Shown here: one piece after another, positions 15,537-27,119 of the stretch | How positions within the stretch are numbered: position 1 is the stretch's first letter | Layout: every line of letters begins with the position of its first letter | From: an uncultured Spirochaetota bacterium | GTDB lineage: Bacteria; Spirochaetota; Brevinematia; Brevinematales; JAOACQ01 | Assembly: GCA_963835575.1 (NCBI GenBank) | Contig: CAWIGG010000005.1 | Span: 224,001-288,000 of the forward strand | Length of the DNA: 64,000 bases | Direction: 5' to 3' | Program-made: the position numbers and the translations under genes | Notes under the pieces: generated by a model | The model's input: only the letters and a program-made list of their open reading frames with translations | What the model was told of the DNA's origin: nothing | Database searches by the model: none

Positions 15537-15776
15537 TAAAATCGGATGCGGGCACGGTGTCCATCCGCGTTTCAAGGAAAGGCGATTACTGGGCCGTTCA
15601 TTACTCCATCAACGGCCTGGATTGGAAAAATGGTGCGGTATTTCCCGCTCGGGCTCAAAAAGAGGGCCGGGGCGGGGGTCTTTGCGCAGTCACCATTGGG
15701 GAAGGGGTGCGGGGTGGTCTTCGAAGGGCTGGTGATAGGGAGGAATGAGTTTAAGGATTTGAGAAAAGTGGTATAA
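15537..15776 (+). pseudogene. DUF1349-family gene, 3' part, frameshifted
   Basis: IRVSRKGDYWAVHYSINGLDWK / MVRYF..AGVFAQSPLGKGC.VVF..DLRK; shift in A5 run near 15626-15630. Confidence 0.75.
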
Positions 15777-16158
15777 TGTTGCCGCTGGGGTATTAACCAC
15801 GAAGAACACGAAGGACACGAAGACACACCAACGGAAGTGGGGAACGGACGGGGAAATCCGCGAATGTACGCGAAGGGAGGATGAGATATAATACTGAAGA
15901 TTTTATACGATTAAAAATATTGTAAGAGAATTTTTTTCATAATATCCGATTTTTCACACAGATTTTCACGGATGAAGGCGGATTTTTGAGGATTTAGTTA
16001 TTGTTTAAGATAGCTGATTAGTAAAAGTATTATTTCAACGCTGAGCCGCAGGATGCGGAGAACAAAAAAGAATACAAGAGCCATTCCATACAAAAGCGTC
16101 ATTGCGAGCGACATGCTCTCTCCTTTGTCTCTGACTTTAGCGCGAAGCAATCTGTTTG

Positions 16159-16236
16159 CTTAAAAATGGGCCGTCGGGTCAAGGCCGGGGCCGCGGTGCA
16201 GTCGCCAATGGGGTGGAGTGCGGAGGTGGACTTTTG
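16159..16236 (+). pseudogene. Second 3' fragment of DUF1349-family gene
   Basis: LKMGRRVKAGAAVQSPMGWSAEVDF aligns with LGLKKRAGAGVFAQSPLGKGCGVVF. Confidence 0.6.
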
Positions 16237-16356
16237 TTCACTTTCTTTGTCCAAGCGGCGACAATGCCTCGACCAGGCTCGGCAACCGCAATTCCTTTAT
16301 TATGTAATAAAAGCCAAGAAAGCGATGTCCCGAGCGAAGTCGAGGGGAAAACAGGT

Positions 16357-16625
16357 CGAGGCCATTTTCATACGAAGCTGTCTGATCGTATAGAGGTGTG
16401 TCATCCGGCTTTTGAAAAACGATGCCTAATAAAAATAGCCTCCTTATTACGCTGTCCATAGCTTTATGCGTCGGTTGCGGCATCCCTTCGATATGCCCTT
16501 TGGGTTACTCAGGGCAGGCCCTGCCGCAAGCATGTATCTCTCTTCTATTATTATGATAACGGATGACACATCAATAAATTGAGATATTTGATGTGCTGAT
16601 TATGGCCATGAGGAAAATGGCCTCG
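16357..16625. repeat. Structured repeat, copy B (34-bp REP-like insert in central loop)
   Basis: Outer IR CGAGGCCATTTTC/GAAAATGGCCTCG, inner IR GTGTCATCCG/CGGATGACAC, central stem TTGCGGCA/TGCCGCAA. Confidence 0.85.
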
Positions 16626-16916
16626 GGAATGGATATTATTTTAGCACTAGAATAAAATTCCTATTGTGAATAAATTATTTTTTGAATAAAATATTGTAAT
16701 GGAAGGAGGAATACTATATTAATTATACAAATGCTTTTTACGAGGAAGGGATCGCTCAAAAAAATGTAATTATTAATATTTTTTCCGAATTTTGCAAAAT
16801 TAAGGATGTTCAAGCGTATTATTAACAGGAACGGAATTTTACTTTACGGCCGCTCAGATCAGTATTCCAGTAGAAATGAGAGTAAGGATTTAAAGATAAA
16901 TTAGCGAGGTAAAATT

Positions 16917-17849
16917 ATGAAAGGATTTATTTTATTTGTTGCCTTTTTATTCGCGTTCAGTTCTGGAGTTTTTTCCGAGAAATATCATGGCGGGGATTAT
17001 TTCGGCGATCTTTCCGATAATGCGATTCTATACGGGAAGTGTGAAAGCCCGACAAACTTCAAGTGGGGATACCTGGACAAAGATCATAAAACGCTCATCA
17101 GTCCCCAGTATCACGCAGCCTCCTCTTTTTCCAACGGGACTGCCTTGATCGAGATGCCGGAAGGCAAATATTTCACTATCGATAAGAATGGTCAGATCAT
17201 AAAGGAGCATTTTCTCAGCGCCAAGGTAGAATACAGCAAAAACGACGATGATATCTATTATAAAAAGGGCGACATTCTCAATGTTCTGGCCTTATCGGGA
17301 TTGAACCTGAGGGAAGAGCCTTCAGTCGGTTCGAAATCGATCGTGAAGGTGAATTGCGGGGAATCCGTGGAAGTCCTGGAACTGCCCTCGGTAAAGTTTA
17401 CCTTCGAGAAAATAAACGGCTACTGGCTGAAAGTGAAATACAGGGAAAAAGAAGGCTATATTTTCGACGGGTATCTTTCAAAATATCCGGCTCCGGAAAA
17501 CAAGGGGAAAGAATGGGATAAAATCTCAGAATATGTTGAAAAACAAGTACAAGTAGGGAAACCGGTTAATTCCATAAGCTTAATAGTAACCCCCCCTTAT
17601 GATGATTACGATTCCTCTGAAGTAGAATATATAGTCGAATTTAAAGGCAATATTTACATTCATTCTATTTCAGGTTATGAGAACAGAACCGAAAAATTCT
17701 ACCTTCCCGATGTCCGGCTGAGCGAGGCCAGGATCATCGGCCTGTTATGCGGCGGGATTCAGGCCCAGGATAAGACCAAGCCTTATTATTTCTATGTCGA
17801 AAGGGATCAGAACGGACATATCTATATAGAATTTGACGTAGCATATTAA
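16917..17849 (+). CDS. Secreted protein with WG repeat and SH3b domain
   Basis: Signal peptide; KWGYLDK..ISPQY..ASSFSNG.A; GLNLREEPS..W.KV.Y..KEGYIFDGYL. Confidence 0.8.
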   Translation: MKGFILFVAFLFAFSSGVFSEKYHGGDYFGDLSDNAILYGKCESPTNFKWGYLDKDHKTLISPQYHAASSFSNGTALIEMPEGKYFTIDKNGQIIKEHFLSAKVEYSKNDDDIYYKKGDILNVLALSGLNLREEPSVGSKSIVKVNCGESVEVLELPSVKFTFEKINGYWLKVKYREKEGYIFDGYLSKYPAPENKGKEWDKISEYVEKQVQVGKPVNSISLIVTPPYDDYDSSEVEYIVEFKGNIYIHSISGYENRTEKFYLPDVRLSEARIIGLLCGGIQAQDKTKPYYFYVERDQNGHIYIEFDVAY

Positions 17850-17867
17850 AGCAAAATTAGAGGAATT

Positions 17868-18449
17868 ATGAATAAGAAATTTGTTTTCGGATTTATTTCC
17901 GGACTTATTCTAGGTGCGATTGCGGCATTTATTACTGATTATTTCTTAATACATTATGATCCCCTCGCTGACAAATCATATTACAAGAATCTCACAATTC
18001 AGAATGATTCGACCAATTCCGAGCTGGCCGCTTATACGATAGATGCAAAGTTTTACGATATAAACGGCACAGGTAAGGATAATCTTGCAATTAAGTTTTA
18101 TAAAAATGAGAATAACGGGAAATTTTATTTGCAATTTATCGGAAATAACAACACCAATTCGATTGACAATCCCGGCATACCGATCGATAAAATCCGGGTT
18201 TCCTACGATTCCAATCTTAATATTTATCATCAATATCTCTATGATAAAAACTATGGCTGTGTCGTGACTTTAGAAAGCCATCTGTTTGACGGCATCAGTT
18301 TCTATAAAATATTATCTTATGGAACAGTTCTGAGCAATAATAATTTACTGGATTATTTTGAAACTAATGATTACAACTATTCCAGATATATTTTTAATGA
18401 ATTCAATTTTTCAGATACCAATCGTTACTATATTGAAAACGATAAATAA
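17868..18449 (+). CDS. Hypothetical membrane-anchored protein
   Basis: N-terminal hydrophobic helix, AGAGGA RBS, adjacent to previous gene. Confidence 0.65.
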   Translation: MNKKFVFGFISGLILGAIAAFITDYFLIHYDPLADKSYYKNLTIQNDSTNSELAAYTIDAKFYDINGTGKDNLAIKFYKNENNGKFYLQFIGNNNTNSIDNPGIPIDKIRVSYDSNLNIYHQYLYDKNYGCVVTLESHLFDGISFYKILSYGTVLSNNNLLDYFETNDYNYSRYIFNEFNFSDTNRYYIENDK

Positions 18450-18571
18450 AATAATACCGGCAGCTTCCTCATCCCAGGGTAATGTTTTATCCTGACAGGC
18501 TGTTGGGGGTTTTACGATATTTCTTTCTTTTCGAAAAGAAAGAAATATCGCGCTAAAGAAAGAAAACAGGT

Positions 18572-18806
18572 CGAGGCCATTTTCATACGATGCTGTCTGA
18601 TCGTGTGGAGGTGTGTCATCCGGTTTTTGAAAAACAATTCCTAATTAAAATAGCCTCCTTATATCGCCGTCCGATGGCTTTATGCGTCGGTTTTGACATC
18701 CGTGTCAAAAGCATGCGCCTCTCTTCTATTATTATAATAACGGATGACACGTCAATAAATCGAGATATTTGATGTGCTGATTATGGCCAGGAGGAAAATG
18801 GCCTCG
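18572..18806. repeat. Structured repeat, copy C (uninterrupted, 235 bp)
   Basis: Same outer and inner IRs as copy B; central stem TTTTGACA-TCCG-TGTCAAAA. Confidence 0.85.
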
Positions 18807-18858
18807 GGAACGGATGGGGTAACCCGATGCACGGAAAATATTTTTTAAAAGAATTCTT

Positions 18859-20378
18859 GTAACTATCCAGCCACTAAAAAATAGTCACATGAAATATTTG
18901 CATTGAGCATGAAACCATGCTATTCTATAGCATGAATGAAGATAGAAGAGAAAAAGACTGTGCGGCCTGCTTAAAACGATTTGAAGGCATCATTGCTGAT
19001 TTACAAAACCAGATAAAGGAGCAGGGTTTAATCATTCAAAGACAAGCGGAAAAGATTAAGAAATTGGAAGAACAGCTTAATAAGGACAGCCATAACAGCA
19101 ATAAACCGCCGTCTTCCGATAATCCATTCCAAAATACAGTAAAGAATTTACGGAAAAAGAGCGGTAAAAAACAAGGCGGCCAGTTTGGACATAAGGGAAA
19201 TACTCTGAAGAAAGTAGAAAGCCCTGATAAGATCATAGAACATCAGGTTGAAAAATGTTCCTGTTGTGGAATTGATTTAAGTTCCGAATCAGTTAAGCGG
19301 ACGGAAAGAAGGCAGGTGTTCGATATACCTCCGATAAAAGTGGAAGTTACCGAACATCGCTCGGAAGTAAAAGATTGTCCGCATTGCGGTGCGAGAGTAA
19401 CGGCGGAGTTTCCGGAAGGCATAACCAATAAGGCACAGTATGGAAAAAACATTAAAGCGCATCTGGTCTATATGAAAACATATGGGTTGATACCCTATGA
19501 AAGGCTTTCGGAATACGCCGAATGTTTATTGGGAGTGCCGCTCAGCAAGGCAACGATTGAAGGATTTATCCGGGAGACCTACAATAAATTAGAAGAGTAT
19601 GAACAGAAAGTCATAGAACTGATACTAAAAGAAGTGGTTCTTCACTGTGATGAAACCGGTATTCGGATAAAAGGGTTATTAAAATGGCTCCATGTTGCCT
19701 CGAATGAACGTTTTACCTATTATTTTTCTCATGACAAACGCGGCACAGAGGCGATGCGTGCGATGGACATTCTCACAAGATTTACCGGTATTATTATCCA
19801 CGATGGATGGAAAAGTTATCTGGAATTCTTATGCCGTCATGGATTGTGTAATGTACACCATTTGAGAGAGCTAATCTGGATACATGAGGAAATGGGTCAG
19901 GAATGGGCTAAGGAGATGGGTAATCTTCTTATAAGGATTAAGAATGATAAAGAGGCAAGTTTTCCAATACCGGCGGAAAGGATTATAGAATATGATACGG
20001 AATATGACCGGATCATCGCGAAAGGATTTGCTGTAAATCCAACGCCTGAAAAGCCGGAAGGACTTGTTAAACGCGGCAGAAAAAAGCGGGGCAAGGTTTT
20101 ATGCCTATTAGACCGATTAAGAAAATATAAAGAATCTGTCCTTTTATTTATGCGGGAAAAAGATGTTCCATTCAGCAACAATTTGGCGGAACGGGATATC
20201 AGAATGATAAAAGTCCAGCAGAAAATATCAGGTACATTCAGAAGCTGGAATGGAGCGGCTGCCTTTTGCAGAATCAGGGGTTATATATCTACAGTAAAAA
20301 AGATGGGCGTCAGTGTTTATCAAGCCCTTATTGACGCGTTGAACGGCTCCGCTATTAAATATGCGGCTGGATAGTTAC
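18859..20378 (+). mobile_element. IS66-family element (single-ORF, ISBst12-like)
   Basis: IR GTAACTATCCAGCC / GGCTGGATAGTTAC; 8-bp duplication GAATTCTT at 18851-18858 and 20379-20386. Confidence 0.95.
18917..20374 (+). CDS. IS66-family transposase, apparently intact
   Basis: NSNKPPSSD, GGQFGHKG, CxxC zinc finger, LHCDETG, IHDGW, CNVHHLREL, NNLAERDIR. Confidence 0.95.
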   Translation: MLFYSMNEDRREKDCAACLKRFEGIIADLQNQIKEQGLIIQRQAEKIKKLEEQLNKDSHNSNKPPSSDNPFQNTVKNLRKKSGKKQGGQFGHKGNTLKKVESPDKIIEHQVEKCSCCGIDLSSESVKRTERRQVFDIPPIKVEVTEHRSEVKDCPHCGARVTAEFPEGITNKAQYGKNIKAHLVYMKTYGLIPYERLSEYAECLLGVPLSKATIEGFIRETYNKLEEYEQKVIELILKEVVLHCDETGIRIKGLLKWLHVASNERFTYYFSHDKRGTEAMRAMDILTRFTGIIIHDGWKSYLEFLCRHGLCNVHHLRELIWIHEEMGQEWAKEMGNLLIRIKNDKEASFPIPAERIIEYDTEYDRIIAKGFAVNPTPEKPEGLVKRGRKKRGKVLCLLDRLRKYKESVLLFMREKDVPFSNNLAERDIRMIKVQQKISGTFRSWNGAAAFCRIRGYISTVKKMGVSVYQALIDALNGSAIKYAAG

Positions 20379-20386
20379 GAATTCTT

Positions 20387-21113
20387 TTTCATAATATCCG
20401 ATTGTTCACGCGGATTTTCAAGATTACAGCAGATTTTGAGGATTTAGTTTTGTGGGGAGGGTCTTGATGAGAGGAAGATTCCTGGTTGTTTGGAGATAGA
20501 ATCGGGGTTGAAGGTGGCTTCGCCTGATTGACAGTGGATTTTGATTGAGAATCACTTCTTGATTTTATTAAAGCTTATTTATCGACCCCAATTTCACGCG
20601 GATTCCACGGATTTTGGCGGATTTTAAGGATTTAGTTTATTTAAAGATGCATTCTAAAATAAATCGGTTCCTTACTGTTATTAGTGCGTTTCGGGGATTA
20701 ACAGGATGGCACCCTTCGATATTACTCAGGGTAAACTCCGGCGGGAAGGAGAACGGACGAGGTAATCCGCGAAGGCACGCGAAGAGACGCGAAGGGGATG
20801 GATTTTGAATTTCGATTCTTTATAAAAGCATTTCATACCTTTTTTTATTCTGGCGCTTTTTAACGGGGGTTTTGGGGTGGGCTTCGCCCGGCAGACAGAA
20901 GATTTTGATTGAGAATCCCTTCTTGGTTTATTAAAGCCTATTGATCGACCCCAATTTCACGCGGATTTTCGCGGATTAGGACGGATGCTTCGGCTTCGCT
21001 CAGCACAAGTTTTGGAAGATTTAGTTTTATTAACCTGATTTGTTTACTCGATGGCTGGAAATGTTAGGGGAATGAGGAGGGATGGGGGAGCAGACACGAA
21101 TTGGCACAAATTG
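20387..21113. repeat. Cluster of degenerate dispersed repeats (9-nt-period units, REP-like hairpins)
   Basis: Similar to 15797-16010 and 4143-4232; e.g. CGCGAAGGCACGCGAAGAGACGCGAA, CACGCGGATTCCACGGATT, CCCTTCGATATTACTCAGGG. Confidence 0.75.
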
Positions 21114-21132: not shown

Positions 21133-21480
21133 CTAAATCTGATTACGATTACCTCGCTCAAATATACAAGTCATTCCTTTAAACAAATTATTTTTATATA
21201 TAGTAATATTATTTCTTATCTTGAATTGAGATTCATTTATAATAATAGGATGAATCAACATTTTATTATTCTTTGAAATATTATATATCATGGAGATTAT
21301 ATCAACATCATTAATTTCATCATATAAGACCACCAAAATATCTATATCTGAATCTCTTCTATAATAATATGCTTGACTACCAAGTAGATATATTTTTTTT
21401 ATCTCAGACTTTGCTTGTGCACTTTCTTCAATTTCTTTTATTATGCTCTTTAATTCTTCTGGGATATTTTTTGATTTCAT
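21133..21480 (-). CDS. Minimal nucleotidyltransferase (MNT / Pol-beta-like) protein
   Basis: KIYLLGSQA...DSDIDILVV motif, 115 aa. Confidence 0.8.
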   Translation of the reverse strand: MKSKNIPEELKSIIKEIEESAQAKSEIKKIYLLGSQAYYYRRDSDIDILVVLYDEINDVDIISMIYNISKNNKMLIHPIIINESQFKIRNNITIYKNNLFKGMTCIFERGNRNQI

Positions 21481-21663
21481 CCACTAACTCCCTTATTTTA
21501 AGTTGCTGTTCAGACCTGTTTAATTCAAGCCGTTTTTCCAGAGATTTTCTATAATCAATAAATTCTTTAATCGCCTGACTAAAGTAATGATCTTCCATCT
21601 GATTTTTATTCAGATTATCTTTCCGTTTTATTTCTTCCAATTGATTATAGTTTTCTTCAATAT
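21428..21663 (-). pseudogene. 3' remnant of an unknown gene, apparently truncated by the transposon end
   Basis: Open frame overlapping the MNT start; its 5' part runs into transposon-end repeats. Confidence 0.5.
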
Positions 21664-21727
21664 TGTTGTATCCAGCCACAATATTTTTCCTTAGCTTAGC
21701 CACGATATTTTTCCAATAATAATAATA

Positions 21728-21753
21728 AAAAAGACGGGATAAATTTCCCGGCC
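21728..21753 (-). terminator. Terminator after ATPase gene
   Basis: Minus strand GGCCGGGAAATTTATCCCGTC followed by T6. Confidence 0.6.
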
Positions 21754-21759
21754 AATTAG

Positions 21760-22557
21760 TCATTTCCATTCTGATTTTGCTTGATCAAATATAAGATCAT
21801 CTACAATTTTTTTGCCATTTGACATAGCTGCTAAAAGGAGTGTAGTGCAGATTCGATTTATTATTCTTGGAATTCCAGAAGATTCGTCATGTATTTTAGA
21901 TATGACTGAATCCGTGAATATAGCTGCGGTACTTCCTGCTATATTTAAATGATGCCGTATATAACCACAGCTATCTTCTAATAGCATTCCTTCCAAATGA
22001 AACTTTACAGTAATTCGCTGCCTTAATGCTTCATTTTCCAAACCCGCAAACCTTTGCATAAGTAGTTTATGGCCTGAAAAAATAAAGTTAACAAGAGATC
22101 TGGTGTCAAAATCAAAATTTGAAAGTAACCTTATCTCTTCCAAAATAAAACCCGGAAGATTTTGAGCTTCATCCAGAATTATAACCGGCGTTATCTTTTT
22201 GATCATAGCTAATTCCCTAAGTGTTTTTTTTAGAATATTACGACATTCACCAGAGCTATATACCGGTCGAACTTGGAACTCTGACAATATAGTTCGATAG
22301 AAATCTTGTTTTTTATCAAAAGCTATATTCAGATAAACAGACTGATGTGTATTAGGATTCATTGAAGAAGTGAAAAATCGCAGGGCTGTACTCTTACCAC
22401 TTCCAACTGGACCAGTAAGTAGAAAAAAACCTCCTTCCTCCAGGAAATATTTTAACCTATGTCTGAGATTTTCAAAATCTTTCCATAAAAATGCTTCTTT
22501 CTCTGAAATATCTCGAGAGAATGGTGTTCGAATAAATCCATAATATTGGTTAAGCAT
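21760..22557 (-). CDS. ExeA-like / TnsC-like AAA+ ATPase
   Basis: YGFIRTPFSR, Walker A GPVGSGKS, Walker B IILDEAQ, ALRQRI, SGIPRIIN; overlaps transposase stop. Confidence 0.9.
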   Translation of the reverse strand: MLNQYYGFIRTPFSRDISEKEAFLWKDFENLRHRLKYFLEEGGFFLLTGPVGSGKSTALRFFTSSMNPNTHQSVYLNIAFDKKQDFYRTILSEFQVRPVYSSGECRNILKKTLRELAMIKKITPVIILDEAQNLPGFILEEIRLLSNFDFDTRSLVNFIFSGHKLLMQRFAGLENEALRQRITVKFHLEGMLLEDSCGYIRHHLNIAGSTAAIFTDSVISKIHDESSGIPRIINRICTTLLLAAMSNGKKIVDDLIFDQAKSEWK

Positions 22558-23917
22558 TAGAATCCTCCTTTTTTATTCTGCTGAAATCAATTTGCCGTCT
22601 CTCTTTTCTAGAAATTTCTAATTCTTTTTGTTTCAGCCTCGAAAAGAATTCCATAGATGATTGCCTTATGATAGATACTGCTGTCTTTTTTTCTTCTGGA
22701 ATATTGCGGAAAACAGGATTTTTTAAATCCCGCGGAAGTGCAGTCTCTGAATATTTGTTTTCTGAATATATAAATACTTTCGACATATCGAAGGGATCAT
22801 ATCGAACTTCAACTTCAGTCCCAAGAAACACATGATTATTAAGACAATAAGTATTCCCATTCAACTTAATACTCCCGTCGGAAGGGTGGACTTTCCGTTT
22901 TTCCCTATATAAAAATATTTCTGTAATTTCCTCGATACTTTCTATAGTCCTTAATTTAACGTTCTTCATATCATTTGTATATCTGTCAAGCGGAGTAACA
23001 CCAATCGCTTGATGTTCCACTCTGTGGTATTCTATTTCTATCCAAGTCTGCAAAAATGAATTCAACTCATCCAAAGAAGATATATCAGCAAATCTGGCTT
23101 CAGACATAAATTCTTTTTGAATACGTTGAAAGAAGCGCTCAATTTTCCCTTTAGACTGAGGAGAATATGGGAGATGGTGCATGAGCCGGATACCGAGCAT
23201 TGCACAAATTCTGCTTAAATGATAAGTATCAAAAATCTTACCGTTATCAACATACAACGCTTTAGGAATGCCCCGTTTTAAAATCGATTTTTTCAAAGTA
23301 TCCTCGAGTCTTGGCAGTTTCTCATCAAAATAAAATTGTGCATGGGGAATAATCCTGGAATAATCGTCAATAAAAGCAAATAGATAAGTCATTTTTCCAC
23401 TACTGCGAAGAGGTATTCCGTCTGTTATATCAGCTTGCCACAATTCATTAATATGTTCTTTTTCAAATGCATAATTAATTCTTTTTTGGCATAAGTTTCT
23501 TCGATTAAGGCCATTATTTTTAAGTACTCGTGAAATTGTTCTCTCTTTGAGAGGTATATTCTGGAATTCCAGTGAAGATTTCAGTAGTTTCATAATTTGT
23601 CTTGCGCTTCGTTTCGGATCCTCTTCTTTCAGATGTTTGATCTTTTTGATAATATTATCAGAATGTTTTTTTGATTTACCTTTGTCTTTTCTGATTTTAC
23701 GATTTAATCCTTCAAAGCCTTTGGATTCATAACGCTTGATGTAATTCAACAAAGTTTTTGACGTTAATTTTTTCTTTATTGAACCGGGAATATTCTGTTC
23801 CTCATTAACAATATTCCGAATAATATTCTGACGCTCCTTTTTATCTTCTATGTGAATCAACCGTGAAATAAGACCAAATTTAAATAAAGACTTTCTCATT
23901 TTCTCATCATCTTCCAT
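22550..23917 (-). CDS. DDE (rve) transposase with Mu-transposase C-terminal domain
   Basis: HTH region, LWQAD, FIDDYSR, LYVDNG, PYSPQSKGKIERFF, VEVRYDPFDMS. Confidence 0.92.
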   Translation of the reverse strand: MEDDEKMRKSLFKFGLISRLIHIEDKKERQNIIRNIVNEEQNIPGSIKKKLTSKTLLNYIKRYESKGFEGLNRKIRKDKGKSKKHSDNIIKKIKHLKEEDPKRSARQIMKLLKSSLEFQNIPLKERTISRVLKNNGLNRRNLCQKRINYAFEKEHINELWQADITDGIPLRSSGKMTYLFAFIDDYSRIIPHAQFYFDEKLPRLEDTLKKSILKRGIPKALYVDNGKIFDTYHLSRICAMLGIRLMHHLPYSPQSKGKIERFFQRIQKEFMSEARFADISSLDELNSFLQTWIEIEYHRVEHQAIGVTPLDRYTNDMKNVKLRTIESIEEITEIFLYREKRKVHPSDGSIKLNGNTYCLNNHVFLGTEVEVRYDPFDMSKVFIYSENKYSETALPRDLKNPVFRNIPEEKKTAVSIIRQSSMEFFSRLKQKELEISRKERRQIDFSRIKKEDSNA

Positions 23918-23991: not shown

Positions 23992-24609
23992 TTACCCGGA
24001 ATCCAGACTTAAAAGCTTCTTTCCAGAGCAGAAGCTATAAATATAATTCAAAAAATAGTATTTCTCAGACTCAAGAATAGGACCAAAAAGGTACTTTTTG
24101 TGATATATTACACAGAGTTTATCTAAAATGTTAAATAGGATGTTTAATTTATCTATATTAGAATTCTGATCAGGATAAATGTCAGGAATTTTTGTAGAGC
24201 TATCAAGTTCAATTATAAGTTTTGATAAAGTTTTTATTAAATCATCGCATTGTTTCATTAGACAATTGAAATAATTCCGGAAAGTTGAAAGGTTATTAAA
24301 ATGAGTGTCATAATATTTCCAAATAGTTTCTATTTTTTCAAATTTCATATAATGGTTTTGAATCAACCCCAAAAATATGTTAACACATCTTCTTTTTCTG
24401 GAAAGAAGGTATGGCGGAATTACAGAAATTGTTTCACTTTTTTTCCCTGATTCCAAAGGATAATAGAAACGAATAACATCAGTACTAATAGGATATTTTC
24501 TAGGGTATGTGTCATTATATTTATAACCAGGGTGGTCAATTAAAAATCTTTTTTCAACATTTTCTCTTGTATAATCCTCTGGATAAAAATAAAGGCCAAC
24601 TTCTTGCAT
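23992..24609 (-). CDS. DUF6431-like transposon accessory protein
   Basis: Y.R.Y....IRFY....TISVIPPYLL.RKR pattern and position before DDE/ExeA pair; ATG 24609 preferred because the upstream extension lies inside paired stems. Confidence 0.6.
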   Translation of the reverse strand: MQEVGLYFYPEDYTRENVEKRFLIDHPGYKYNDTYPRKYPISTDVIRFYYPLESGKKSETISVIPPYLLSRKRRCVNIFLGLIQNHYMKFEKIETIWKYYDTHFNNLSTFRNYFNCLMKQCDDLIKTLSKLIIELDSSTKIPDIYPDQNSNIDKLNILFNILDKLCVIYHKKYLFGPILESEKYYFLNYIYSFCSGKKLLSLDSG

Positions 24610-24625
24610 TGATTCCAATCCATCA

Positions 24626-25290
24626 CTTATATTTCCAGTAGCCCATAATGACTGACATTGACAGTCATTTTTCAAGTATTGCTAGTTTGTGTCCTCTGAG
24701 ATGTGATGGATTTAAATCATTCACAGATAAAATCTGTCTTTTTTAAAGCAACTCTGAAATAACAGAATATGATGCTATTTTCATAAAACAATGAAAAATA
24801 ACAACCATCGCTTTTTTCAGACATAATATTAGACATAATGAGGACACAATACTAGCAGCTAAGGGAAATATAAGGTAGGGAATTGGAAACCAATCCCTAA
24901 TTTTGCCGGCAGCAGAAGCTACCGGATTTTTTTAGAAGAGTTATATAATAACCCTTCTCTAAATGACACGTTTTCATAAGAAAAGTGTCTTAAAAATAAA
25001 ATGAAAGCTAGATTATTAAGCTTCCATTTTGTGCTGCTTATAGCAGCAATGTGTCGTAATGCTCAACCATAAGAAAAAGTGAATCGTTTCATAGGTCATA
25101 TTCATTATTTGCTCAACTCAATGTCAACCCGGCATGATATTGTCAAGCTGATTTAAGGGAACAAGAGTCAAGCATTGCAAAAATAATGAGTAAGAATAAA
25201 ACCTATTCCAACAAACCCGTGATTTTCCCTTAATTACACAGGAAACTGACTAACGACGTAATTAAATTATCGGTTTTGACCAAAAGGATT
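24626..25290 (-). ncRNA. Putative large structured RNA or leader, family not recognised
   Basis: About 15 helices including nested long-range stems; most mismatches are A-C on plus, i.e. G-U on minus. Confidence 0.7.
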
Positions 25291-25370
25291 ATTAGATCAT
25301 ATTGATTACATTAAAAGTTAAATATCCCGAATAGACATGTTCGACAGAAGTAATAATATGGATTTATATT

Positions 25371-26078
25371 TTAACTTCTAAATAAAGTAATAGATTCACT
25401 AAAGTAATTAGCATTAGGGATTATTTGTTTCCATATTTTATCATTTGTAGATGAAGTTGGTATTGAAAATACACCTGAAGCTCCTATTACATAACTCCAT
25501 TTGTTTGAAGGAAGTTCACCAACACCTCTTATATAGAATACTAAATTTTTCTTAAAACCTAATGCTTTCTTTGTGTCTTTTACTAGAATAGCACTCGGAA
25601 TATTTCTTGTTTTTAGAAGCACAATTGCAGGAAGAGGAGATCTAATTAACAGTTCGCCTATAATAGGAGGAAGGTCTCCTTTTATTTTTACTTTCTTGTC
25701 ATCAATAATAGTATCATTTTCCAATTGTTTTAAAAGATCAAACTTATTAAAATCAGGAGTTCTGCATATATCAAAATCATCAAGATATATTGATCCATCA
25801 ATATTTCTTTCTTCACTCGTTTCCTCTGTCAAGTACTTATTTACCATATCGTAAATCAATTTCAGAGCTGTATCAGTATTATCAGTATTTATATTTACTT
25901 GTAAAAGATTTAAATAATTTTTTAAATCTTCAATATCCCAGATAACACTGTATTTCCTATCCATTACATAACCCGAGGTTTCTCCATAGCTCTTCTTTTG
26001 AACATCTGTCCAAAAAGCCAAAGCGGCGATATCAATAATTAATCTTGGTTCAATTTGAGATTCCATGAATTCCTCCAA
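25371..26078 (-). CDS. Hypothetical AT-rich protein
   Basis: 235-codon ORF, GGAGGA RBS near the second start codon, no family recognised. Confidence 0.65.
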   Translation of the reverse strand: MEEFMESQIEPRLIIDIAALAFWTDVQKKSYGETSGYVMDRKYSVIWDIEDLKNYLNLLQVNINTDNTDTALKLIYDMVNKYLTEETSEERNIDGSIYLDDFDICRTPDFNKFDLLKQLENDTIIDDKKVKIKGDLPPIIGELLIRSPLPAIVLLKTRNIPSAILVKDTKKALGFKKNLVFYIRGVGELPSNKWSYVIGASGVFSIPTSSTNDKIWKQIIPNANYFSESITLFRS

Positions 26079-26562
26079 TTAGAGATTAATTATAATTATA
26101 GCTTAAAATAATGATTTAAATAAATCAATAGTGGATTGTTTTTTGATAAGACACAAAACAGTTAAGACTTGAATTTTTAATTTTACATAAAAGATTGGTT
26201 AAAATTAATGATAATCAATAAATTTCCCATCTTCGAAAATTGTGATTGATTCAATTAATTTTGTATTATCATTAATCTGATTTTCAATATAGATTCTACC
26301 ATTACTCAAATGATATTCAAATATATATTCGATATTATCTTTTAAGCTATATTTATTAGCAATGTTTTTAATACTTTTTTTATTTCAAAAAAATTTCTTT
26401 CCCTTTAAACAGGGCTGTTTCCCCTAATCCTCAATATGTGATTTGCATTTTTGTTGCATCTTATTTGCAATTTTAGAGTAAATATTTTACACTTGAAACA
26501 GCCGTACTGATTCGCTTTAAAATAACAATATGCCTCCCAGGCAGAAATTGGTAAAAAAAAAG

Positions 26563-26964
26563 ATGTCACATTTAAAATTTGTCAGTAAAGTATATAAACC
26601 TGCCCGCAGTTTATTCAAGGTATATTTTAAGAAAATTGTCCTTTTATTTACTTTTATTGCATTTATTTCGATTTCCGTATTTTCACATCACACTCACCAT
26701 AATGAGGATCTTCAAATAAAGAATAACAGCGCCTGTTGTCTTAAAGCGCAAAGCGAGTCTCTTCAAGACAAAGATGGAGATTTTTGTATCGCCTGTTTCT
26801 GGCAGAGCATTGCCCAATCGACAGGCATTTTTGACAAGATCGTGTTAACCTATGAAAATCCTGTCTCAAATATTTTCAAACCGTTACTGAATTTCCATTC
26901 TGAAAAAATTATTTTATCATTCCAGAACAGGGCTCCTCCAACCCGGACTTTTACCGGTTGTTAA
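26563..26964 (+). CDS. DUF2946-like small protein with His cluster, CxxC and C-terminal RAPP
   Basis: Hydrophobic segment then HHTHH, CC, CIAC, QNRAPP; start uncertain. Confidence 0.65.
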   Translation: MSHLKFVSKVYKPARSLFKVYFKKIVLLFTFIAFISISVFSHHTHHNEDLQIKNNSACCLKAQSESLQDKDGDFCIACFWQSIAQSTGIFDKIVLTYENPVSNIFKPLLNFHSEKIILSFQNRAPPTRTFTGC

Positions 26965-27119
26965 AAAAAAATCAATGAATATTTTACTTTTTTGTGTTGT
27001 CTAATGGCTAACTTCAAGATCTTTCAATAGTGTTGGAGGAACACTGAATAAAAAAAGTAATGGATTAAGGCTTTTTTTTAATGGCCTTTCCCTGATAATT
27101 ATTATGGAGGAATAACCCT

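Follow-up and report, generated by a model that had tools for sequence, protein, structure and literature searches.

A long folded segment upstream of an IS481-like transposon operon in a Spirochaetota bacterium, possibly an expanded transposase leader

Positions 24600–25300 of the window (the whole stretch of DNA analysed, 64,000 nucleotides from an uncultured Spirochaetota bacterium) form a real secondary structure. It lies directly upstream of an operon encoding a DUF6431-like protein, a DDE transposase and an AAA-ATPase; ORF and profile evidence places it there, as had an earlier reading of the DNA made from its letters alone (the sequence-only reading). The fold is in register with the start of the first gene, orfA. 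Leaders in the family are normally short, the closest relatives lack the long form, and this copy displays no recognizable left end. The preferred interpretation, held tentatively and at a little under an even chance, is that a structured segment of about 630 nt was gained in the leader of this copy and that it would damp orfA translation in cis.

Fold and coding content of the segment

The minus-strand fold of positions 24600–25320 has an energy of −213.3 kcal/mol (z −10.37) and the plus-strand fold one of −188.5 kcal/mol (z −7.52). The proposed structure folds beyond shuffled controls, i.e. none of 20 dinucleotide shuffles is as good on either strand. Sliding 200-nt windows limit the folding signal to positions 24600–25300.

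All 296 ORF-free regions of at least 550 nt in the genome were scored with a regression-based z, and the segment ranks 19th. Only two of the top 45 folding regions are wholly unique, and among ORF-free regions that hold no repeated sequence none in the genome folds better than the segment. Chance folding of AT-rich spacer DNA could be argued from the 18 of 296 regions that fold better by the same measure. However all 18 contain sequence repeated elsewhere in the genome and the segment contains none. Because of this and of its strongly negative z (about −10), the segment is neither a chance fold nor one of the genomic palindromic repeats; chance folding is largely refuted and its probability is close to nil. 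Strong folding was also seen in two further ORF-free regions that are single-copy or nearly so, G000:C4:1055094-1055694 (minus strand, z −11), which has three similar long hairpins, and G000:C3:72708-73308.

Two low-coverage contigs of run X1 are identical to positions 24644–24797 and 25116–25328. These parts are therefore not assembly errors, since the contigs match letter for letter. X1 is possibly the source sample, and the match is not independent support. No joints were seen in the X1 contigs.

Positions 24626–25290 are ORF-free as previously described, with no ORF of 60 aa or longer except a TTG extension of orfA. The biggest small ORF within the segment is 52 aa, and no convincing type I toxin candidate was found among its small ORFs.

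The domains are listed in Table 1. Four of the stems previously proposed are present: 24626–36/24864–74 with 11 of 11 pairs, 24680–96/24840–57 with one bulge, 25091–96/25201–06 with 6 of 6 pairs, and 25111–19/25165–73 with seven Watson-Crick pairs and a tandem G-U on the minus strand. Five of the six consecutive hairpins have pair probabilities of 0.94–1.00, and the sixth, 24876–99, is weaker at 0.52–0.59. Stems 25124–31/25144–51 and 25230–37/25258–65 are complementary as claimed, but alternatives compete with them and they are absent from the minimum free energy (MFE) structure; the MFE helices that replace them have p 0.2–0.7. The description "almost fully pairable" is too strong: about 35% of the bases are unpaired. 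The hairpins of the middle domain are not repeats of one another, and no tandem array was found in the segment.

Table 1. Features of the folded segment, the transposon and its flanks (window coordinates)
Feature	Positions	Strand	Remarks
Putative cut gene and nucleotidyltransferase, outside the right end	21133..21666	-	77-codon open frame overlaps start of the 21480-21133 gene
Right end	21667..21748	.	TGT-terminated 24-nt repeat 21667-21690; alternative start 21664
AAA_22 (ExeA-like) ATPase	21760..22557	-	265 aa
DDE transposase	22550..23917	-	455 aa; rve and Mu-transpos_C; D163, D224, E260 intact
orfA	23992..24609	-	205 aa; diverged DUF6431-like accessory protein
3′ multibranch domain (minus reading)	24626..24874	-	11-bp closing stem, 16-bp inner stem, inner hairpins; helix probabilities mostly 0.74-1.00
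Six consecutive short hairpins	24876..25048	-	3-9 nt loops; pair probabilities in text
Long compound stem	25084..25214	-	Carries tandem G-U on minus
Weakly determined 5′ part	25215..25291	-	Includes 19-nt L080-like stretch and 6-bp arm
Upstream orphan ORF	25371..26066	-	231 aa from ATG; no usable model

The sequence-only reading had also proposed that the structure is strand-specific, from about a dozen mismatches that are wobbles on the minus strand against about two in the other sense. A count in strand-neutral helices does not reproduce this: the helix-adjacent mismatches are 12 G-U and 7 A-C on the minus strand, and composition alone predicts a G-U share of 0.63 (p 0.59). Mismatches internal to helices lean to the minus strand, 5 versus 0 by reading of the mismatch list; all three single mismatches do so, plus one tandem pair. 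The energy gap between minus and plus is −23.5 versus −16.6 ± 7.1 in shuffles, where 21 of 121 are as extreme. Hairpin loops on the minus strand are U-rich (32 U versus 16 A, p 0.03). Two control stretches, which we take from a 16S end to belong to an rRNA operon, have about twice as much unpaired A as unpaired U; by this comparison loop composition points to the plus strand. Strand specificity is not confirmed: wobbles lean minus, loops lean plus and the energy gap lies within the shuffles. Wobble pairs cannot tell RNA from single-stranded DNA.

The segment could be a DNA-level element, i.e. a non-autonomous foldback or hairpin array (MITE-like or resembling a single-strand origin) that was inserted into the left end or replaced it and has no function as RNA. 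Strand-neutral Watson-Crick pairing dominates (−174.6 versus −172.3 without G-U), and the segment also folds as DNA (−107.6/−97.8). Its loops are tiny, with no GNRA or UUCG loop found on the minus strand, and palindromic repeats abound in the genome. According to the available part of one publication (PMC11109978), motifs linked to transposases may function at the level of DNA. However the segment is single-copy and unlike the genome's repeats in sequence, and it has short branched helices with internal wobbles where the repeats have long perfect hairpins. It shows no terminal inverted repeat across its whole length, and no duplication was found. A DNA-level element is improbable.

The segment belongs to no Rfam family: there are 0 hits at gathering threshold in the 64 kb (Rfam 15), and in E-value mode the best matches fall well short of the threshold and involve families of no relation to it. 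Searched as an 851-nt stretch, it finds only itself in its own genome by blastn and nhmmer, three short chance pieces in plasmids and three in phages. Of 400 genomes of the phylum, 59 contain short matching pieces, which score no more than 44.6 bits and do not exceed about 60 nt. Two exact patterns from the segment gave 0 matches in viral contigs. Covariance models of three domains (R1–R3), each built from one sequence and thus of low power, find only themselves in the own genome. In 100 relatives each they give 0, one weak match and 0; the weak match (L174, E 0.033 per genome) is treated as chance. In 100 transposon-family loci each they give one match at E 0.35, 0 and 0. The match at E 0.35 is that of the six-hairpin model to L188:3644-3784, where consecutive hairpins lie close to the right end of a distantly related element of the family. 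No second sequence of the long structure was found in the collections tried, hence there is no covariation.

A further candidate is an ORF-less self-splicing intron, either degenerate or atypical, that sits in the leader as an insertion. The size of the segment fits ORF-less introns. No intron family of Rfam matches the segment at E up to 10, no group II 5′ GUGYG or catalytic domain V pattern was found on either strand, and the group I R and S core motifs gave only chance-level matches with two mismatches and no convincing core pair. Work on IStrons called for custom models of group I introns in addition to the standard set, as stated in the accessible part of PMC10690162. An intron is nevertheless very improbable.

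The host transposon and its surroundings

orfA begins at the ATG at position 24609, the start proposed earlier, which is conserved in alignment with a close relative (L080); the last stem closes 17 nt before it. The protein is without the cysteines of the DUF6431 family and no Pfam match was found for it. It is placed near DUF6431 clusters in the Atlas, and a profile built from 96 ORFs that lie upstream in related loci (L029 and L080 among them) matches it with E 1.6e-8; two of these 96 ORFs match DUF6431 below the curated cut-off. A fold search with a confident orfA model gave no clear match, RNA-binding or other (best Z 5.7).

The transposase has IS481 as its best NCBIfam model, at 186 bits, which is below the cut-off of 224; judged by sequence, the host element is IS481-like only. 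IS481 family ends are given as TGT...ACA in the available part of PMC11406308, and the right end here fits. Sub-terminal sites of the right end are at 21699 and about 21733. The right end has one copy in the genome, and the element is single-copy. No left end was found for the right-end repeat; the best TGT pair, 13/22, is not credible. An exact target duplication that would place the segment inside the element was not found either. At 25306–25299 five of six bases agree with the right flank and TG comes next, with a rough chance estimate of 0.1–0.2. Promoter predictions inside the segment are not in excess (34 versus 30.0 ± 5.6 in shuffles), and no terminators are called there. None of the adjacent ORFs encodes a RuvC/HNH nuclease, a DEDD recombinase or a Cas protein.

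The orphan ORF sits 80 nt upstream of the structure and is a possible source of read-through transcription. No homolog was found among 292 candidates of similar length, and it has no Atlas or family match. Just upstream of its ribosome site, positions 26088–26165 share 81% identity with 80 nt that lie sub-terminally in a genomic element of eight copies, which is also in run X1; they may be a shared promoter or operator.

On the other side, the right end seems to cut a gene that lies before a minimal nucleotidyltransferase (21480–21133), which is MntA-like (PADLOC PDC-S09, E 3e-12). The two, at 21133–21666, are possibly a disrupted toxin-antitoxin or defence pair. The region of 21–27 kb is a low-GC island, whose edge is likely marked by positions 26459–26990, which are 90% identical to G000:C4:145647-146175. 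Palindromic repeats, some in as many as about 50 copies, are dense at 15750–18950 and 20350–21030, where they flank small genes and an IS66 transposase at 18917–20374.

These surroundings bear on another reading, i.e. that the segment is an independent and undescribed non-coding RNA gene, on either strand, which abuts a left-truncated transposon. It might work together with the orphan protein encoded upstream, or it might be an antisense RNA to the operon. The missing left end, the A-rich loops on the plus strand, and the low-GC island with its nearby orphan ORF are in its favor, as are a size and multi-domain shape like those of large orphan RNAs, e.g. the 659-nt ROOL (available part of PMC12286853). 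However the structure stops right at the ribosome site of orfA and the gene itself is undamaged, an outcome that would be rare for a random deletion. In addition, no kissing loops or loop-loop pairing stronger than −4.4 kcal/mol were found in the segment, and the three models find no homolog in the own genome or in 100 relatives. An independent RNA gene is possible but rather unlikely; if it were one, it would be a candidate new class of large bacterial RNA.

Leaders of related elements

The close clade of the transposase comprises 47 of the 120 matches listed, with 49%–69% identity. The locus set has 133 loci (51, the best 80 of 567 from metagenomes, and 2), of which two are in the close clade. 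These, L080 and L029, are the two closest relatives retrieved and the 2 of 47 close-clade members whose DNA was read. L080 has 66% transposase identity, inverted repeats of 24 nt that match perfectly, and a leader of 114 nt ahead of orfA; L029 has 50% identity, both ends and about 100 nt before orfA. An 86-aa ORF without Pfam match lies between the ATPase and the right end of the latter (L029:2967-3227). Neither relative has the long structure.

Paired TGT ends were found in 35 of the 77 loci long enough to test. In 29 of the 35 the left end is at most 465 nt from the orfA anchor; here it is 870 nt from the anchor to the far edge of the structure. Of the six loci with longer leaders, L032 and L045 carry an extra ORF and five are without strong folding; L125 has one strongly folding 200-nt window only. 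The extra ORF, of 115–145 aa, lies between the left end and orfA in a Bacillota subgroup (L045:197-541, L048:106-537 and L032); it has an internal repeat and no Pfam match. Exact 6-bp target duplications are present in L038, L040 and L083, and the family relatives have both ends.

The sequence-only reading had offered, among other options, an elaborate translational leader, which is the best fit, and a targeting or scaffold RNA. A general RNA cofactor of the DUF6431/DDE/ExeA module is not supported: the same structure was expected upstream of homologous operons, and since it is absent in the closest relatives and 29 of 35 paired-end members have short leaders, the long structure does not serve the family at large as a cofactor. 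A family-wide role as transposon RNA is contradicted by those relatives whose DNA was read.

Further close relatives were sought. The orfA profile yields no further close-clade loci in 400 genomes of the phylum, and the transposase profile none new in 300 genomes of the L029 phylum and five distant matches in 150 genomes of the L070 class. Plasmid transposase matches have less than 39% identity. The contig span of the 47 close proteins was rejected as a proxy for element length; one cluster ranges from 2967 to at least 3675 nt.

A tree places the window transposase as sister to the L080 clade (SH-aLRT 82), with L029 outside their 99-supported group; the tree is a quick search with 39 database proteins, the two close loci and five outgroup rows, partial proteins being omitted. 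The branch of the window transposase is long (0.41). Because L080 and L029 are short-leader elements in this tree, the long structure would most simply be a gain on the branch of the window or in this copy.

The leaders of the relatives also fold, i.e. about 200 nt before orfA do so in many of them. In alignment A8 (L087-L158 group, 34 sequences) a hairpin just before the start codon is 97% paired and shows nine double changes, a result reached in 0 of 500 shuffles. A purine-rich stretch is upstream of this hairpin and the start codon is downstream, in a region of about 250 nt before orfA. Alignment A9 (L034-L090 group, nine sequences) displays two hairpins with double changes in 12 of 24 pairs (0 of 500 shuffles). 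Kinship of sequences can beat shuffles in both tests, and slid controls are much lower. These conserved, partly covarying hairpins are possibly an undescribed translational control motif.

The L080 leader, in which a 10-bp hairpin ends beside the ATG, is collinear with both edges of the segment, with 14 of 19 identities at positions 25273–25255 plus bases before the ATG. The ungapped match has p 0.02 near the boundary and 0.12 over the whole segment, and the alignment ranks 133 of 2552 overlapping windows. Other L080 scores have p 0.10–0.48; the gapped scores for L080 together with those for L029 have p 0.10–0.99, L029 not being significant. A 6-bp arm at 25291–25286 can pair with 24621–24616 beside the ATG (p 0.0–0.7, depending on the window folded). 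Because the L080 leader is collinear and this arm echoes the L080 ATG hairpin, these similarities hint that about 630 nt were inserted into the loop of the leader hairpin of the family.

Resemblance to known systems and possible function

Several RNAs have been described beside transposition genes, and the segment shares their non-coding structure and position: the IS110 bridge RNA, the TnpB/IscB omega RNA, the CAST guide RNA and IStron introns. Unlike these, it has no adjacent RuvC/HNH, DEDD or Cas gene, its loops match neither target nor donor, and it is not conserved in its family. Of the features that mark guide, bridge and group II RNAs, those looked for here are absent.

A guide or scaffold RNA peculiar to a sub-lineage is a separate proposal. 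Here an unsampled IS481-like sub-lineage would have exchanged its left-end repeat region for a 650-nt RNA of a new class that guides the transpososome or is its scaffold, perhaps replacing lost left-end binding sites, with the modelled orfA protein as binding partner. All three genes are intact, as is the right end, whereas no left repeat is present and the structure stands where the left end would be; the long transposase branch, the small number of close-clade members read and the partial flank match at 25306–25299 agree with such an origin. However complete relatives with paired ends lack the structure. The sequence-only reading had asked whether loops match insertion sites, and exact matching to the target flank and transposon end, which would miss split or short guides, gave none beyond chance: the longest match is 8 nt, a length that 69% and 79% of control stretches reach. 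The failure of orfA to match an RNA-binding or other fold and the single genomic copy also argue against it. CRISPR guide-directed transposition has so far involved Tn7-related elements according to the portion of PMC11406308 at hand. A guide or scaffold RNA is quite unlikely; if true, it would mean a DDE transposon that depends on RNA yet has no CRISPR or TnpB parts, with potential as a tool.

The large RNAs ROOL, GOLLD and OLE, as described in the accessible part of PMC12286853, are alike in size (ROOL env-120 is 659 nt), in their many helices and in mobile-element context. In contrast to them, the segment has no Rfam match and no detected pseudoknots or kissing loops, and its structure is at present that of a single sequence. 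The likeness to ROOL is in size only.

The tnp leader of ISPpu9 (Asr9/Ssr9) is likewise a long folded leader before the first transposition gene with predicted burial of the ribosome site, and the ISPpu9 transposase is repressed by this structured 5′ UTR, so far as the available text of PMC8450116 reports. Its transposase is of another family, however, and the putative leader here is about 650 nt, multi-domain and absent from the closest relatives. The short leaders of the DUF6431-DDE-ExeA family (IS481-like, TGT...ACA, 6-bp duplication) are in the same position, have a hairpin at the orfA start and, in L080, share the weak edge similarity with the segment. They measure about 100–250 nt, compared with about 680 nt here, and the relatives have a left inverted repeat where this copy has none. 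By analogy, the segment is most likely to resemble a translation-repressing transposase leader, several times longer than the leaders of its family.

The preferred reading, an expanded cis leader, may be outlined as follows. This copy of a DUF6431-like/DDE/ATPase insertion sequence, or an unsampled sub-lineage, would have acquired the segment in its 5′ leader, possibly by capture of an older RNA gene or of a mobile segment. Minus-strand transcription would start at a residual leader promoter near 25270 or read through from the upstream orphan gene. The structure would act in cis on the operon mRNA, keeping the weak ribosome site and the ATG of orfA paired, and its U-tailed hairpins may pause or stop transcription. 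Expression of the transposase operon would be damped because of the paired start region and these hairpins, and the structure would not be needed for transposition. In the predicted ensemble, positions 24621–24608 are mostly paired (unpaired probability mostly 0.03–0.3 and up to 0.6 at three positions), i.e. the ribosome site and ATG are predicted paired, with a partner that shifts with the window folded.

Several observations stand against this expanded cis leader. A length of 630 nt far exceeds the need for burying a start codon, and loop composition favors the plus strand. Neither a left inverted repeat nor an exact target duplication sets the segment within the element. The lack of homologs and of covariation, the promoter count without excess over shuffles and the lack of called terminators also count against it. 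The leader homology to L080 is borderline (p 0.02–0.12), and none is significant for L029.

Published literature within the coverage of the search, which took in few subscription papers, contains nothing on an RNA of the DUF6431-DDE-ATPase transposon family, and the main text of a 2026 preprint on non-coding clusters makes no mention of IS481, ATPase or DUF6431 in the part available. The three-gene family has almost no literature. If the segment is an expanded cis leader, an insertion sequence would have acquired a large RNA module where its left end should be. Such a leader would also point to an apparently undescribed and testable short-leader motif across this widespread transposon family.
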